Translations under genes and position numbers: made by a program
Source: Malacoraja senta
Lineage: Eukaryota
Reading direction: 5' to 3'
NCBI GenBank assembly: GCA_038087875.1
Contig: CM075990.1
Span: 16,246,001-16,310,000 of the forward strand
Length of the DNA: 64,000 nt
Notes under the pieces: generated by a model
Database searches by the model: none
Told to the model about the DNA's origin: nothing
Seen by the model: only the letters and a program-made list of their open reading frames with translations
Shown here: piece after piece, positions 7,384 to 57,325 of the stretch
Numbering within the stretch: position 1 is the first letter of the stretch
Layout of the letters: every line of letters starts with the position of its first letter

Positions 7384-8653
7384 CTGAAAAGTAAGAAGAA
7401 AGTCTCCTGTTTGTGCACTTAATTTTTCACAGCCTGTAAAACATTTCAACGGTCAGTTAAAATAAGTGAAACCATTGTCGTCACTCATCAACTTTTCAAT
7501 TGTTCCAACTTTCACCCACCCCCTTTTGAAAGGTATTTGAAAGGTACCAGCCAATAACCCCCCATCACCTGTATCCACCTAGCACTTGCCAGGTTTTGGT
7601 CCCCCCTACCCTCTGACACCTCTCTTTTACAGCTTACTTGGAGGCCAGGTGTATAATTTGCCTTACTGGTCAATACAACAAGCAAACAACGAGCACCACA
7701 CATTACAGAAGCAGTTAATGAAGTCCCAACCAGAAACATCACCTATCCATGTTTTCCAGAAATGCTGCCTGACCCACTCAATTACTCCTGCACTTTGTGT
7801 CTTTTCTTTAAACCAGCACCTGCAGTTCTTTTTTTCTACTCGAGCAGAAATGACAGCAAATGCAGTTTAAGGTTCATCTCCACCAGCACTGAGCAATTGC
7901 CTGTGGGTCGATGTCACTGTGTGTGCGTGTGAGAAATGATAGCAGATTTAGGAGCAGGCAAGGGGCAAGTGGAATGATTCCCTGAGCATTTATATTATGT
8001 AGCCCTATCTCTCCAGGAATATTAAGCATTTCTGAAGAATCCTTCAAAGGTCTAATTTGTCACCAAGCCCATTGTCTGCATTCAGCATTACTATGTACCA
8101 TACATTGTGGAATCTAAAGACTCACATCTTAATAAATAGATCACATCATTATTAATCAACAGATAGAAAGTGTACTGGCCATTAAGAATAAATGGATGAA
8201 GAGCTAAATGGCTTTTGACCACGTATTATTGTGATAATGTAAATCTCAATCACACTGACCCCTTGTTTATCACTTTCCAAAATTGACTGTTATCTTGCAG
8301 TTTACCATTTTGCTTAACATTAGAATTCAGTGAATTGTATTATAAAAAAATAAACTATTAAACACCCTGAACAGGAATTAGACCTTTCAAACACAACCTT
8401 GTGTGACAGCATTTTCAGTCTATGAAATATTTTCAAAAATATCCAGGCCAAGTTTATAATCTACCATTCTCCAGAACACATGTATGCTGATATCATTCGG
8501 ATCAGTAAATATAACCATTTTTAAGAGCACAATCAAAATGAACCAGTTTGCACATAATAAATGTTGTGGTACAATACTTGCAAACTGTGCATGTGTTGTC
8601 GGTCAGTTATAACCCCCTCCGTATCCAAGATCAGTGTTAAACTGCTGAGATAC

Positions 8654-8775
8654 CTTGCCTTGAGTTCATCGATGCTGCTGTGGAAGGTACAGGTGCACTG
8701 TGGAGGACACAGGCAGAACCCTACAGCGAGAGAACCAAACCACAACCAGGAACACAACCAAGCGGCAAGCAACAT
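8654..8775 (-). CDS. LRIT1: LRIT1 coding exon 1 (signal peptide + LRR N-terminal cap)
   Basis: ATG at 8775; MLLAAWLCSWLWFGSLAVGFCLCPPQCTCTFHSSIDELKA(R) has a hydrophobic leader and CPxxCxC cap; AG|GTATCT phase-2 donor; joins exon 2 to give KARTVLCNNPEMT, matching LRIT1 KARTVVCNDPDMT. Confidence 0.9.
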
Positions 8776-8918
8776 TTTCCTTGCTGCGCAGGACACGAAT
8801 GATCCAAAGGTCTCTCCGGCTTAATTCCGTTTCGGCAGCATCTCCTGCCGTCGCAGTTCACCGTCCCACAGTGCTCATCTGCCGCAGAGTGAATCCGGAG
8901 ATAAAAAAGGATAGAGGA

Positions 8919-11239: not shown

Positions 11240-12165
11240 GGTTTCATCAACGGCTTATTATAAAAGTTCTGAATGTCGTTTCCCTCGACCATCCTGCTGT
11301 ATTCAGAATATGGTCAACCGGTACGTCCATTCTGTCGGCCGTTGATGTAGATGCTGCCCTAGTGGAATGAGATTTAAATGTATTAGTATCTATTCCGGCA
11401 GCCTTCAGTACCTGTTTGAGCCATCTTGAAATGGTTTGGCTCGTTACCCGGCCATGAGGTTTCTTGTGGCTGACCCATAAGGCTTTTTCACTCCCTCTGA
11501 TATTGTGGGTTGTGTCTATGTAATGTTGTAGATGGGTCACGACACACAACCGTGGCTCTTGTGGGTAGGCCCGGAATACCACCAGTGGATTAGCTGTTCC
11601 TGGCCTGCTTTGCTTCACCAGACCCTGTATGATGAATGTGATCTGATCTGGGGCGGTCACCATGTTGTCCAGCCTTAACTTGTGTAGTGACTGGACCCTC
11701 TGAGTGGATACGAGTGCCATCAACATGAGCGTCTTTAGTGTAGATTGCTCGAGGCTGAGGGATCTGGCTGGTGGCCATTCCCTGAGGTATGTCAGGACCA
11801 CACTGATATCCCAAATATGGGTATACCTGGGTTTAGGGGCTTGATATCATAAATGCCCTTCATCAGTTTTACCACCAGTGGATGGGATCCCATTGCCTGT
11901 TGTCCTGCTGGTTTGAGATAAGCAGAAAGAGCACTTCGCGCTGTGTTGATGGCACTGTAACTGATCCCTTCATCATGGTGTAGATGGGCCAGGAATTCCA
12001 GTACGTTGGTGGCTGTGGCTGTTGCATACGTTGTCCCTGTTTCCTGGCAGTACTTCTCCCATTTTCTTATGCTGATTCAGTACTGCTTCTTGGTGGATGT
12101 TCAAAGGGATGCCGACATGGTGGTGATGGTTCGTTCGGACAATCCCTGTTCCAGGTAAGATCTAT
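11240..12165 (-). pseudogene. DIRS tyrosine recombinase (stops and frameshifts)
   Basis: SYSAINTARSALS N-terminal part; QRVQSL, KQSR, HSTRAASTS, AGWS..TF motifs; catalytic Tyr lost by a 1-nt deletion. Confidence 0.9.
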
Positions 12166-13068
12166 TCAAAGCCTGCAACCCAGGAGTTTAATTTTCTCAT
12201 GGCATGGGTGGCTTATGCCTGATACTGGGTGAGTTAATAATCCTGGATCACTGGGAAAGACCATTGGTGACTCAACCACCATGTCATGTAGAACCGGGAA
12301 CCATGGCTGTGTAGGCCAGTCGGGCACCATCAAAATTCCAGAAGCAGAGTCCATCTGTATTTTGCGAAGTACCCGACTGATGAGGCAGAAGGGAGGGAAA
12401 GCATAGAAGAAGACATTTCCCCAATCCAGCGTGATGGCATGTATCGCTGCTGCCTCTGGGTCTGGTTCCCAAGCGACATATATAGGTAACTGGTGATTTC
12501 GTCTTGATGCAAATACATCGATATCTGGCGTTCCATACTGCTTAATAACTTTAGCAAATACTTTAGGGTTGAACATCCATTCGATGTTATCATTGAATTT
12601 GCGTGACCTGGTGTCTGCCACTGTGTTTAGCTTACCTGGTAGATAAGTAGCTGATAGCCAAATATGTCTTTCGACACACCATAGCCAAATCACATTGACC
12701 AATTTGTCGCATGATAATGATTTTATGCCGCCCATATGGTTAATATAAGCCACCACCGTAGTATTATCAATCTGTAACCGAACATGCAAGTGCTGCATAT
12801 TAGCTACATATGCTTTTAACCCATAAAGGGCGCCCAACATCTCTAGATAGTTAATGCCCAGTGTCAGTAGTAATGATGACTCTAGGTTAGTCCATCTACC
12901 ACCTGTGCTGGATATGGAGTAAGTTGCTCCCCAGCCTTGAGCACTGGCATCTGTTTGAAGAACTAAAGTAAGGTTAGTGATGATGATAGAGCTGAAACTA
13001 TGCCAAACATTTTCTGCCCACCACTGTAGCTGATATTGCTTCAGTGGGTAATTACATGACACGAACAT
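12166..13068 (-). pseudogene. DIRS RNase H + DNA N6-adenine methyltransferase-like domain
   Basis: TDASAQGWGA, INYLEM, IDNTTVVAYINHMGG, YLPGKLNTVADTRSR (RNase H); IDVFAS, YAFPPF, PDWPTQPWFP (MT domain typical of DIRS1). Confidence 0.9.
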
Positions 13069-13069
13069 C

Positions 13070-13983
13070 GTGACCTGTATGTCGTTTTAGTGCCTGTACC
13101 TTTGCTGTTTGTAAATTTTGATAGTGCAAAGGTCCGCATTGTGTAGCTGGAAATGCTGCTACCATTTTCCCAATCACTCTTGGGACTTGTCGAATAGTTG
13201 GTCCTTTGTTGACCATTAAATAGTTGCATGATTGTGCTAATGCAACCATTTTTATTTTTATTTTTTATTTTTATTTTCCTTTTGGCAAGGTAACAGTCAT
13301 ATGGACTGAGTTAATTGTGAAGCCCAGGTAGTCCATAATAGTGGATGGCTTCAACTTAGATTTATCTGGATGTAGGATGAACCCCAGAGTTTCGAGGAGC
13401 TATTTTGTAGCTGATACTGCTGCCACAGCCAATTCCATCGTTTTCCCTACTATCTGAATATCATCCAGGTATGCCATGACAATATGTTTCTTAGTCTTGC
13501 CATGGCTATTTTCAATATTTTGATGAATAATCTTGGGGCTGAGGTTAGCCCATTGGGCAATGCGTTGTACTGCCTCAGCTGCCCCAACCAGATAAATTGT
13601 AGGTATCTGCAATGATCCTTGTGTATGGGTATTAGATAGTAAGCATCTTTCAGATCAATGCTTGCCATGAAGTATCCTTTGGAAATCAGTTGTTTGGCAG
13701 TAACAACTGTCTCCATTTTGAAATGTATATACTCAACAAACTTATTTAGTGATGTTAAGGCAATGATGATGCGACATCCACCATCTTTTTTGGTTTTATT
13801 TGATACAAATTCCAAAGGTTCATGTTTGGTCTTTTGGATGACCTCTCCACTAATGCTGTTGAGTATATACTTATCACACGTGACAGTAACCCATGCTTCT
13901 TTAAACCAGTGTAATCTCCCCTCTGTTAGTAAAGCACCCTTATTCTCTATATGCTGGCAGGAACCAGACCCACCTACCTCCAT
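13070..13983 (-). pseudogene. DIRS reverse transcriptase (frameshifted)
   Basis: KKDGGCRIII, HFKMET, SIDLKDAYY, YNALPNGLTSAPRLF and AYLDD motifs spread over shifted frames; (TTTTATT)n expansion at ~13248-13277. Confidence 0.9.
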
Positions 13984-14137
13984 GTTCAGTGGTGTTTCTT
14001 TTGTTTCCTGATGTTTTTGTAGGTTTTGCTTGTCTGACGTGCTGGCGATGTTGGGGGGTGGCGCATTTTCCATGGGGTCCGCTGTGGGCCCTGATCTAAA
14101 AAAGATCTTTTGGGGATAAAATGCGGTCCCCGAGCTT

Positions 14138-15237
14138 TCACCAGTCCCATATTGAGGACGTCGACTGGTGGATGCCATGGGGTGCTGCCGCTTGGGTATT
14201 GTAGCTCTTGGTTTGCTCGTCCCAGGGCCTGCCCTCATGAGGCCGAAAGATGTCGCTGCTTCCTCCATGTCCCTCAGTTTTTTGTTGAGGTCTTTCCCAA
14301 ATAACAGAGCATCCGTCTCTGCAGCTGGGGCTCTGCACAACCCAGCAAATTTTGGATTGAGGGCAGGTCTTATGTTTCCCCGCCGGAGATTGTGTATTGC
14401 ACATCAGTGCCAGCACATCCTGCTGGCAAGTATCCATCTCCGTACTTTGCACAGAACGAGCAAAGGCTGTAATGGCCGACGTCCGGAGCCTTAGGATCCG
14501 CTGTAGCTTGATTTCATGGTTACACATGTTTGACCCCACGTGACCCCAGATCTGGCTGTTCACAGTCTTCACTCTGAGGGCCTCACAGTTCTCTGGTGCT
14601 GTATAAAATTCAAGCACCTCAAGAAGTACCTTCTCCTGCAAGGGCTTATTTGACAGATGATTGATGCTGGCCGCCATGTTTGGTTCCAGCGGTCTTCCAG
14701 CACGTGGGGTTGCTACATAGCGGTCCACGACACCCAGCAGCTCTTCCTGCTCCTGCACCCCTTGCATACTGCCGAATTCTTCCGCCAGCCCCTTTCCAGA
14801 CCAGCCCAACCCTGGTCACCAATGCTAGCCTCCAGTAATGAGGGAGCAGAGGGCAGTGCCCAAGACACTGTGGAGGAGGTGCCTGACCTACCTCCTGCGA
14901 GAACGCTCCTTCTGCGTAGCTCGCTGGAGCATCTGCTCCAAGAGCTGTTATAAGCTCTGGCGGCTGTCTCTCCTCCGTGTAGGTGGAGACATGTCCCCAT
15001 CCGACAAATTAGACATTACCGGCCGGTTGCTCTCATGGCTTTGCTCCCTGTCCGCTGTGCAGGCATTAGCGGGACTGGGCTCGGCTCGGTGTCGGGGATA
15101 GCGGAGCGCTCTATGAGCGGTCCTGCCGCCTGTTGCTGCCCCCCTGAGATTAAACGCTCCTCTGGTGGAGTTGAGCTGGGGCAGTTCTGTTGGAGAGTCT
15201 TCTGGTGAGTGTACTTATTTGTTAAGAACACCCACAC
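14138..15237 (-). pseudogene. DIRS gag-like ORF1 (frameshifted)
   Basis: Overlapping ORF pieces (YTAPENCEALRVKTVNSQIW; LLFGKDL) upstream of the RT, as in DIRS ORF1. Confidence 0.7.
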
Positions 15238-20138: not shown

Positions 20139-21368
<1,230 letters not shown>

Positions 21369-21613
21369 ATGGCGTGGTGTGGAGGGAGCTTCACTCTGTG
21401 TACCGTTCCGTACATCCGTATACAGCAGGGACATCGTGGTACGAAGGGTCTGTCCTGTGCTGAAGGGTCTGTCCCTGTGCTTTTTGGCCACGAGAGAGAG
21501 AGATGCCGGTCAGGAGTTGGTGTTTATTTGTGGAGCTGACGAGGTGGAGCTGGGTGGGTCCCCTCTCCCCATGGCCCCCACCCCCCACCCCCCCCCTCCC
21601 CCCCCCCTCCCCG

Positions 21614-21875
21614 TCAGCCCGCAATGCTGAGCCGGGCCAGCTGGGTGATGTCCTCGTCGTCCAGCCAATGCCACAGCAGCTGGGCCACATCGTTCCTCTG
21701 CACAAAGACCAGCAGGTCGGCCATCTTGGAGACCAGCGCCGGGTGGAAGAGAGGGCACAGGTTGGGCCTGGGGTCTGGGGACACAGCCCCACCACCGATG
21801 ACAACAGGCGCAGCGGCCCCAGGGAGGGGCTCTCTCCACGCAGCCGGGCCAGGGTGGTCAGCAGCCCAGGGGGCC
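21614..21875 (-). CDS. Putative terminal exon of the same uncharacterised gene
   Basis: Pyrimidine tract + CCAG acceptor (phase 2); APWAADHPG...NLCPLFHPALVSKMADLLVFVQRNDVAQLLWHWLDDEDITQLARLSIAG* with strong GC3 bias in the C-terminal half; AATAAA at 21523-21528 (minus). Confidence 0.5.
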
Positions 21876-22186
21876 CTGGTGGAGGGGGGAGAGGGGAGAG
21901 GGGGGGTCAGAGAGAGGTGACAGACACACATCCAGACTACCGACCCCCCTCCCCCTCTGCCCCTCCCCCACGTCTTCCCCCCCTCCCCCTCCCATATCCT
22001 ACCCAGCCCCCAACCCTCTCCCCATCCCTCTGCCCCTCCCCCAACCCTTCCAGCAGCCCGGGGGGTCACTGTGGAGGGGGGGGGGCAGAGAGAGGTCAAG
22101 GCACTATGCCCCTCCACCCACTCCCTGCCCCAACCCTTACACCCACCCTCCACCCACCTGCGTTGAAGACACAATGATCACGCATG

Positions 22187-22258
22187 TATACACACGCACG
22201 CACACGCACACACGCACGCACACGCACACACACACGCACACACCCACACACACGCACA

Positions 22259-22293
<35 letters not shown>

Positions 22294-22338
22294 CCGCGCG
22301 CAGCGCACACGCACACACACACACACACACACATACAC
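22187..22338. repeat. (CA)n/(CACG) microsatellite, within the putative intron
   Basis: Direct reading. Confidence 0.95.
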
Positions 22339-22342
22339 TCAC

Positions 22343-22544
22343 CCCAGGGTCCGACACCCTACCCTGGGGCACCCGTCAGATGTGGGACACACAGGGTGAC
22401 ACACCCTCCCCACCCTGGGGCACCTGTTATCTCTCTCCGGTTCCTGATCCTCGCGTCTGCCTTCATCTCCATCAACCCGACCCAGACCATGAGGACCGCC
22501 ACTGTGAGGAGACCCAGCGCTCTCAGCATACCCCAACCCGTCAT
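22343..22544 (-). CDS. Putative exon 1 of an uncharacterised small secreted protein (signal peptide, RNRR site, Cys-rich segment); needs one frameshift at a (GA)n run
   Basis: [37 protein letters not shown], then in the shifted frame [30 protein letters not shown], ending at a GG|GTGAGT phase-2 donor. Confidence 0.45.
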
Positions 22545-23173
22545 CTCGTCCCGTCCCTCCCCATCCCACCGTGCCCCATCCCATCAAGGAGACCAGTGGG
22601 GAGGGTGGGGACCGAGGGGGCTCTCTCCCCTCCCCCTCACTCCCCACCCCAGGACCCTGGCATTGTGACCTCAGTCACCCCCTCCTCTCCCCAAAAACTA
22701 GACACCAGTCTGCCAATAATTGTAAAGTATGCAGGGGGCATGTGTATTTGACTGAGCAACTTTGCTGTACATACATCAGTGTACATCATTTGATCAAACA
22801 CATGTTTGATGGCTGTTGAAGACAAGGTCCAATGGAATAAGATTATCATTAAAGCTATCATCAAGAAATAGCTTGGATGTTTTGTCTTTCCGCTGACTGG
22901 TTAGCACGCAACAAAAGCTTTTCACTGTACCTCGGTACACGTGACAATAAACCAAACTCAAAAGAATTGCACCTGGTGATTGCCTGTGTATGAAAGTGAT
23001 AGGTAAACATGGAAATGAAGTGCAGACTACATACAGTCTGCAATCCTCCCCACAACAACTTTGAATTGCGCTTTTGCACAAAGATCTTATTGCAGCTCAA
23101 TGAATACATTTCACTCTCATTAAATCCGACTTAATAACCTTGAGTACGAAACAGTCATGAGACATACTTCTCA

Positions 23174-23235
23174 GGATTACAAAGCGCCTAAACCCCCACC
23201 CCCCCCCCCCCTCTCTCTCTTAGAGTTTATATAAA
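23174..23235 (+). promoter_or_regulatory. RGR proximal promoter: OTX/CRX site GGATTA (23174-23179) and TATA box TATATAAA (23228-23235)
   Basis: TATA ~75 nt upstream of the RGR ATG; K50 homeodomain motif just upstream. Confidence 0.6.
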
Positions 23236-23306: not shown

Positions 23307-23385
23307 ATGGTAGCCACCAATCCATTAACTGAGGGATTCAGTGAGTTGGAACTGTTTGCACTGGGAACTACCCTGTTACTGGAAG
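23307..23385 (+). CDS. RGR: RGR (retinal G protein-coupled receptor) exon 1
   Basis: AAGATGG Kozak; MVATNPLTEGFSELELFALGTTLLLE; 79 nt, G|GTAAAG donor. Confidence 0.93.
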
Positions 23386-23667
23386 GTAAAGAATTGGAGC
23401 ATTACGTTTGATTTTGCAGCTGTCGATGATATAATTGCACTCAGATGTATGTCGAATCATCTTCATTTTCTTCACTGTTTGATATAATATTCAAATGGTC
23501 ACAGTGATAGTGTGATGCAGCTGATGTGTGTGAAGCCATATTTCAGCATTAACAAGGGAGTATTTGGGGTGCATTTAACCTTTGCGTACTGGCAACAAGA
23601 GGAGTACTTGCCTTCCACAACGTCCGTGCCTGTACAAAGCTGGATACAACCAGAGGATAAATCACCA

Positions 23668-55771: not shown

Positions 55772-57325
55772 ATGGCTACCACAGCCGTGGTCGGGCTGGC
55801 CAAGTCAGCCGTGGTGAAATTTTCAGACGTGGTTGGGGAGCGGAGTAAACAGATCAGCGGCGCGGTTCACGAACCGAAGCGGCAACGCAAGATCTTGCTG
55901 GTCATAGTATGCATCGCCATGTTACTGGACAACATGCTGTTTATGGTGATTGTGCCCATTATACCGAACTACCTTGAAACTATAAGAACTTACAAACTGG
56001 TGTATCCCCCGTCGATTTCCAACGGAACCAATGGGTCGTTGCTCAACACGACGCGGAAACCGGTCTTGGAGAGGAGTCCAAACCCAAACGAAGACATACA
56101 GATTGGATTACTGTTTGCATCCAAAGCCATCCTCCAGCTTCTATCCAACCCCTTAACCGGCACTTTCATCGACAGGGTAGGGTACGATATCCCGCTGCTC
56201 ATTGGACTCACCATTATATTCTTTTCCACGCTCACGTTTGCCTTCGGCGAGAGCTATGCCATGTTATTTATAGCGAGGAGCATGCAGGGCCTGGGCTCTG
56301 CGTTCGCCGACACTTCGGGGATCGCTATGATCGCGGACAACTACACTGAGGAGTCGGAGAGGAGCAAAGCTCTGGGCATCGCCCTGGCTTTCATCTCCTT
56401 CGGGAGCCTGGTGGCGCCGCCCTTCGGCGGGATATTGTACCAGTTCGCGGGCAAGCGGGTCCCCTTTCTAGTGCTCTCCCTGATCTCCCTGCTGGACGGC
56501 ATCATGTTGCTCATAGTCATTTCACCTTTCTGGAATAGAACACGCCACAACATGCAGCAGGGCACGCCGATCTATAAACTCATGATCGACCCTTACATCG
56601 TGGTTGTGGCCGGGGCTCTCACCACCTGCAACATCCCCCTGGCTTTCCTGGAGCCAACTATCTCAAATTGGATGAAAGAAACAATGAATGCCAGCGAATG
56701 GCAAATGGGACTAACGTGGCTGCCGGCGTTCTTCCCGCACATCCTCGGCGTGTACATCACGGTGAAGTTAGCTGCTAAATACCCTAACTTACAATGGTTT
56801 TACGGAGCTCTGGGCTTGGTCATTATCGGGGCCAGTTCGTGCACAGTCCCGGCCTGCAGGAACTTTGAAGAACTCATCATCCCACTGTGTTTCCTTTGTT
56901 TTGGGATAGCCCTGGTGGACACTGCCCTCTTGCCCACCCTCGCCTTCCTTGTAGATATCCGTTATGTGTCTGTGTACGGTAGTGTGTATGCTATAGCCGA
57001 TATCTCCTACTCTCTTGCTTATGCCCTGGGTCCCATTGTAGCCGGGCAGATCGTCCACAATTTTGGCTTCGTGCAGCTCAACCTCGGCATGGGTCTGGTC
57101 AACATCCTGTACGCCCCTGCTCTGCTCTTCCTGAGAAACGTGTGGCAAATGAAGCCCTCGCTCTCGGAGAGAAATCTCCTACTGGAGGAGGGGCCAAAAG
57201 GACTGTACGACACCATCATCATGGAAGAACGCAAGGCGGCCAAGAAATCTCACGGCAGCTCGGCAGGTCGCCACTCCATGTCCGCAGCGCTGGTTGACTC
57301 CGATCAAGAGGACTCCAGTGAATAG
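55772..57325 (+). CDS. SLC18A3: Vesicular acetylcholine transporter (VAChT), intronless, 517 aa
   Basis: AGCATGG Kozak; [86 protein letters not shown] (di-leucine sorting motif); 12-TM MFS. Confidence 0.98.

Follow-up and report, generated by a model that had tools for sequence, protein, structure and literature searches.

What lies between LRIT1 and RGR in this genome, and does the GC-rich kilobase found there contain a gene? The window, by which we mean the whole stretch of DNA analysed (64,000 nucleotides, 16246001-16310000, within a 1.94-Gb assembly), holds both neighbours, with the new gene between them on the minus strand. A small prepro-type protein had been proposed to be encoded here by an unrecognised gene, and this proposal is borne out by a spliced contig, an open frame of 122 residues and codon bias, indicating that a real protein-coding gene is very probably present. 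A single base lacking from a GC-rich exon of the assembly conceals it within the otherwise well-conserved CDHR1-LRIT2-LRIT1-RGR-SLC18A3 block, leaving a vertebrate protein-coding gene that is apparently absent from protein collections holding the LRIT1 of close relatives. The best reading is that of an orphan, fast-evolving secreted ligand, for which secretion, cleavage and function are predicted. Taken as a whole, a transcribed, spliced, single-copy two-exon gene for a secreted, furin-trimmed, helical hormone- or cytokine-like ligand is on balance what we expect this locus to be. The features of the locus are collected in Table 1.

Table 1 Features of the new gene and its immediate surroundings (positions within the window)
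Feature	Position	Strand	Evidence and remarks
RGR coding exon 1	23307..23385	+	Open reading frame; neighbour, outside the new gene
Region between the divergent start codons	22545..23306	.	Motif scan and repeat pile-up
Very high-copy short repeat	22877-22962		Between both start codons; repeat pile-up
Coding exon 1	22424..22529	-	106 nt, phase 1; codon usage and X17 junction
Predicted signal peptide, residues 1-26	22452..22529	-	Cleavage after A-D-A
Predicted basic propeptide RIRNRR, residues 27-32	22434..22451	-	Furin-type R-X-R-R at its end
Intron, GT-AG, 548 nt	21876..22423	-	Removed in X17 contig, retained in X1 contig
Local duplicate of exon-2 acceptor region	22046..22105	-	Own polypyrimidine tract, AG before 22068; no use seen
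Coding exon 2	21614..21875	-	Rest of 90-residue mature domain and stop; X17 and X1
Cys codons C67 (21783-21781) and C76 (21757-21755)	21755..21783	-	C-x8-C; disulfide predicted
Assembly one base short	21776..21777	+	G run; frame shifts at codon 69
AATAAA, predicted polyadenylation signal	21528-21523	-	86 nt past stop; sequence only

Gene structure and read evidence

Reads of 6 of 24 runs were compared with the locus, and two of the four runs tested on 21490-22185 cover exon 2. The contig from run X17 covers 21658-21878 and then carries a 17-nt loose end identical to 22427-22443, at the end of exon 1, a string that occurs once in 264 kb. In this contig, exon 1 ends at 22424 and the sequence continues, in phase 1, at the 21875 acceptor; the CAG common to both sides makes this an exact GT-AG junction, observed in one contig of one run and reaching only 20 nt into exon 1. 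Run X17 comprises 54 million letters, and its summed depth at the high-copy repeat is about 127, compared to 14 million in X1. Since X17 is small and the high-copy repeat is nearly absent from it, the run is taken as transcript-like, an RNA library type that we infer from its letters and the repeat depth. The X1 contig covers 21620-21910, running past the acceptor into the intron, and is genomic.

Over exon 2, the X1 (291 nt) and X17 (221 nt) contigs show no substitution relative to the assembly and one gap each, an extra G behind 21776 that is present in both covering runs at depths of 7.4 (X1) and 53.4 (X17). The two runs are samples of one study, and one of them may be the source of the assembly. 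The extra G brings the leader and the helical tail into one frame. The sequence alone already pointed to such a structure, with a phase-1 donor at 22423, a Leu-rich frame at the start of exon 2 and a slip of one base near 21776.

The original prediction was correct in proposing that an indel conceals the gene, but not in its position, as the base at fault lies at 21776 in exon 2 and the (GA)n run, from which one GA had been removed, is unaltered in all three runs covering it: the X17 loose end, X10 (contig 22427-22600, no difference from the assembly, depth 2, close to the contig end) and X7. Given the junction, the unchanged GA run and the extra G, the earlier repair, donor, phase and Cys-rich segment all fall. 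X17 is spliced at the GT at 22423 rather than at a donor bordering 22343, making 22423-21876 intron; exon 2 is entered in phase 1 rather than phase 2, with its first 33 codons in another frame up to the break at 21776; and a model of 148 residues from ATG 22529 with six Cys is replaced by a read-supported product of 122 residues with two. A six-Cys, defensin-like product was likewise rejected, since the Cys-rich segment is intronic, the GA run is unchanged and two Cys are left. As described, the sequence has start codons at 22544 and 22529, a hydrophobic leader with RIRNRR behind it, an acceptor at 21875, and a C-terminal frame that stops at TGA 21616-21614, 86 nt ahead of an AATAAA.

Besides the Cys-rich segment, the intron contains an unused, stronger donor at 22342, a (GT)n tract and the duplicated acceptor block. 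The donor used (GT at 22423) scores -0.46 compared to 4.66 at 22342 and is the weakest of five candidates. The 22342 donor has the same phase but lies behind an in-frame TAG, and its use would either shorten the product to 56 residues or make the transcript prone to decay. Positions 22424 and 22372 share a 12-nt motif, and a 23-nt micro-exon taken from the acceptor duplicate (22046-22105) would shift the frame. At the 5′ end of the gene, the upstream in-frame ATG at 22544 would add five residues to exon 1, and out-of-frame ATGs occur further upstream at 22663, 22584, 22579 and 22564.

Codon usage was scored after training on four of six neighbouring segments, two having been dropped as out of frame, and compared with 2000 shuffles. 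In the model frame, exon 1 scored above all 2000 shuffles (p < 0.0005) with a GC3 of 0.80, the part of exon 2 before the break gave p = 0.0005 (p = 0.07 in the frame proposed earlier), and the part after the break was exceeded by 0 of 2000 shuffles (p < 0.0005). The Cys-rich segment gave p = 0.087. Codon usage independently backs the same three frames as the reads.

Predicted product and processing

Read through the break with the extra base, the gene encodes 122 residues (127 from ATG 22544). The leader has a basic n-region and a 16-residue hydrophobic core, and its best 19-residue Kyte-Doolittle mean is 2.11, from residue 2. Signal peptidase cleavage follows the -3/-1 rule, on the basis of which the cut is placed after A26. 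RNRR at 29-32 is the sole RXXR or dibasic site of the protein, and no dibasic site was found in the product after residue 32. This single RXRR site and the lack of internal dibasic sites give the product the look of a single small secreted domain, and a neuropeptide-type precursor of several peptides was rejected on these grounds.

The mature part has 90 residues (9.8 kDa, pI about 5.5, net charge -2 from 7 K+R and 9 D+E), with 19 Leu, 9 Pro and 2 Cys, and ends in S-I-A-G with the Gly directly before the stop; no N-glycosylation site was found in it. Single-sequence AlphaFold models of two pieces gave two and three helices (mean pLDDT 67 and 68, pTM 0.28 and 0.35), a confidence that suffices for secondary structure only, and the helices are predicted at residues 38-49, 55-65, 81-97, 100-106 and 109-120. 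The search for a solved fold took in one 53-residue model piece (pLDDT 68, pTM 0.35). The hydrophobic moment reaches at most 0.52, a value equalled by 81% of 2000 shuffles (p = 0.81), and 4 of 80 windows exceed the surface-seeking line, so the amphipathic character first ascribed to the tail is not borne out. A protein of the exchangeable apolipoprotein or amphipathic antimicrobial type was rejected because the moment is no higher than that of shuffles; ordinary moments would be as for a globular bundle.

Judged from these features, secretion with removal of a propeptide is likely. Residues 1-26 would bring the product into the endoplasmic reticulum, where signal peptidase would cut after A26, and a furin-type convertase would remove RIRNRR after R32 in the Golgi. 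The C67-C76 disulfide would form, the terminal Gly may be amidated, and one acidic, 9.8-kDa, one-disulfide helical-bundle domain would be released that could bind a cell-surface receptor. Albumin and parathyroid hormone are made in a comparable way, with a signal peptide, then a six-residue basic propeptide with a convertase site, and one mature chain. The new protein is predicted to share this layout, and no similarity of its mature region was found in Pfam or PDB sequences. With an R-X-K/R-R site after the signal, it would belong among furin-processed secreted preproproteins, its cleavage being predicted.

The hydrophobicity of the leader is also enough for a membrane anchor, and basic residues come next. 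If the leader stayed uncleaved, the helical domain would be membrane-attached, possibly as a cytosolic adaptor, and the basic cluster would act as a topology signal. The 19-residue hydropathy of 2.11 and the four Arg within 13 residues past the hydrophobic stretch are consistent with this arrangement, as is what we take to be a loose resemblance between residues 86-102 and the final stretch of death domains. However, A-D-A fits a signal-peptidase site, the second species examined (organism D, below) alters only the X of R-X-R-R, the Cys pair suits an oxidising compartment, and no Pfam family was found at cut-off, and we regard an anchored protein as unlikely.

About equally unlikely is a secreted protein that is no receptor ligand but a structural, lipid-binding or antimicrobial component of mucus, egg case, skin or plasma. 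Such a protein could be Leu-rich (19 of 90 residues) and helical, with a fast-evolving leader and no relatives found, and a mean word depth of 53 in the contig, a figure that cannot rank genes, is compatible with appreciable expression. A moment no higher than that of shuffles and a net charge of -2 argue against the helices of apolipoproteins and antimicrobial peptides.

Comparison with known secreted proteins

For a secreted ligand, the nearest model of how the new protein might work is, by analogy, FAM237. FAM237A and FAM237B (NPGL/NPGM) are ligands of GPR83 that are described as hydrophobic, Leu-rich and helical chains of 80 residues, held by a single disulfide and amidated at the C-terminus; in FAM237A the propeptide is C-terminal, following a Gly and a dibasic site, and the ligand ends in His-Gly-Leu (bioRxiv 10.1101/2022.09.27.509696). 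The new protein resembles them in a general way only, as a helical chain of similar length (90 residues compared to about 80) with two Cys. Compared with FAM237A so described, its propeptide is N-terminal, its Gly is the last codon and its Cys are only 9 apart. Identity with FAM237 was rejected, as the new protein has no dibasic site after residue 32 and no His-Gly-Leu, and no sequence match was found.

GPR15LG (C10orf99) was also considered as a small, fast-evolving, secreted protein from the GHITM-CDHR1-LRIT2-LRIT1 neighbourhood. C10ORF99 is grouped with CDHR1, GHITM, LRIT2 and LRIT1 in amniotes (PMC8892231), and in fishes the gene was mis-annotated as non-coding or left unannotated until a synteny search; it adjoins GHITM and CDHR1, has 3-4 exons and encodes fewer than 100 residues, with a basic mature peptide, a CC-C-C pattern and a C-terminal Leu/Ile-Pro (bioRxiv 10.64898/2026.06.02.729464). 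In contrast, the new gene lies between LRIT1 and RGR and has two coding exons for 122 residues, and the mature part of its product is acidic (pI 5.5), has two Cys and ends in S-I-A-G. Measured against these descriptions, its Cys pattern, basicity and length, C-terminal motif, and location and exon number all differ from those of GPR15LG, and identity with it was rejected.

Copy number, relatives and conservation

The gene is single-copy in its own genome by both DNA and protein searches. No relative was found by word search using pieces of the protein, HMMER searches of the pieces against 1.84 billion representatives returned no relative and one chance match, none of the three coding pieces matched a Pfam family at its cut-off, and PDB sequences held no relative of the mature region. 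Short queries of this kind miss relatives below an estimated 35-40% identity or so, and orphan here means that none was detected. As a control, the collection searched returned LRIT1 at 94-95% identity, and it thus seems to hold the LRIT1 of close relatives without their copy of the new gene. A literature search, with subscription journals mostly outside its coverage, returned nothing on this gene.

The gene is familiar in kind, as a small prepro-type protein, without an assignable family, and it may be young and lineage-restricted. It is conceivable, though we think it doubtful, that it represents, as the first member to be found, a so far unrecognised family of amidated, helical hormones or cytokines that predates the radiation of cartilaginous fishes, a family that would be masked by high GC content, slips in assembly and rapid change. 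If so, synteny should reveal members in the interval from LRIT1 to RGR, as with fish GPR15LG, and an orphan receptor might have the product as its ligand. New families of secreted ligands are seldom found in vertebrates.

A contig from run X7, of organism D, covers 22345-22906 with 39 differing letters. Exon 1 shows no indel among the 31 differences listed, and five of its codons are altered, giving A4L, T9I, N30A and two silent changes. The ATG, the frame, the hydrophobic leader, the donor GT and the RXRR motif (RARR, with only an X position altered) are retained. Eight of 105 nt differ in exon 1 (pN 0.069, pS 0.097), at about the flanking rate, and no significant signal of purifying selection was found in these 105 nt. 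The organism D contig stops at the repeat before RGR, and the gene is likely linked to RGR in that species as well.

If the window were correct for its individual, the frameshift would be a real allele of a polymorphic or decaying gene that is transcribed without being selected, and the original prediction had allowed for recent pseudogenisation. This reading has in its favour that exon 1 lacks a significant purifying signal, that the donor is weak, and that organism A may be another individual than the window's, given its few further differences from the window (2 substitutions in 223 nt and 3 gap letters in 302 nt). However, both covering runs carry the intact form with no other difference, albeit within one study, X17 carries it spliced, and each of the three coding parts has a strong codon bias. 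Nearby, at 23395, 10 nt into RGR intron 1, the assembly is again one base short of all three covering runs, from two organisms (additional G in X1 and X10, A in X7), and this speaks for an error of the assembly rather than a real allele. Assembly is described as introducing false indels into exons rich in GC (PMC9516821). We infer that the base absent at 21776 is an assembly error, and consider a decaying allele improbable.

It is highly improbable that the unspliced or long-exon form dominates, as a 56-residue precursor that stops at TAG 22361-22359 and would release a 24-residue peptide with two Cys and a Gly at its end. Its 56 codons are open, the strong donor at 22342 lies directly behind the stop, and the sole organism D change among those listed in the tail (22419) is silent in that frame. 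Its 20 tail codons, however, show no codon bias (p = 0.27, GC3 0.60), where pieces of 20 codons from the true exons gave p = 0.004-0.025, and the one contig that looks like RNA has its splice at 22424.

Genomic surroundings

The new gene and RGR are arranged head-to-head, as originally described, with the RGR ATG at 23307 on the plus strand and the new ATG at 22529 lying 778 nt apart and diverging. The original prediction also considered a promoter shared with RGR and a transposed origin of the new gene as possibilities. The exon after RGR exon 1 matches 7tm_1 (Pfam), and we take this 7tm gene starting at 23307 to be RGR from its sequence and the gene order. Between the start codons, a TATA-like motif at 23228/23233 and Otx/Crx-like TAATCY motifs at 23179 and 22845 are presumed candidates. 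The repeat at 22877-22962 is present in organism D too and has 12 weaker matches in 264 kb.

On the minus strand, LRIT1 occupies the part of the window below about 8.8 kb, with 16 protein matches at 61-95% identity, the weakest of which is labelled Callorhinchus; judging by these matches, the organism is likely a cartilaginous fish. A frame with a signal-like start at 8536-8820 (minus strand) could represent the first exon of LRIT1. P0002, the nearest LRIT1 in the database, aligns from 7475 downward only, and its annotated start may differ. Exons of an LRIT paralogue and of a cadherin lie 8-31 kb ahead of the window, upstream of LRIT1, and an MFS gene at 55772-57322 is presumably SLC18A3. Between LRIT1 and the new gene, a broken-frame retroelement at 11250-14815 (minus strand) matches Phage_integrase (tyrosine recombinase, E 8.4e-9), with an RVT_1 match below cut-off (E 1.7e-5), and is one that we assume to be DIRS-like. 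Three long, degenerate (GT)n/(CA)n tracts (20139-20722, 21062-21358 and 22190-22342) flank and interrupt the new gene.

The GC-rich island of the original prediction stands out at 66% GC, the highest 1-kb window in 264 kb (mean 43%), and it is CpG-poor (observed/expected 0.39). Other GC-rich spots upstream, L016 1298-1783 (plus strand) and L019 6300-6850, resemble ordinary CpG-island first exons, the former ending in a frame that we take to be an ELOVL6-like first exon.
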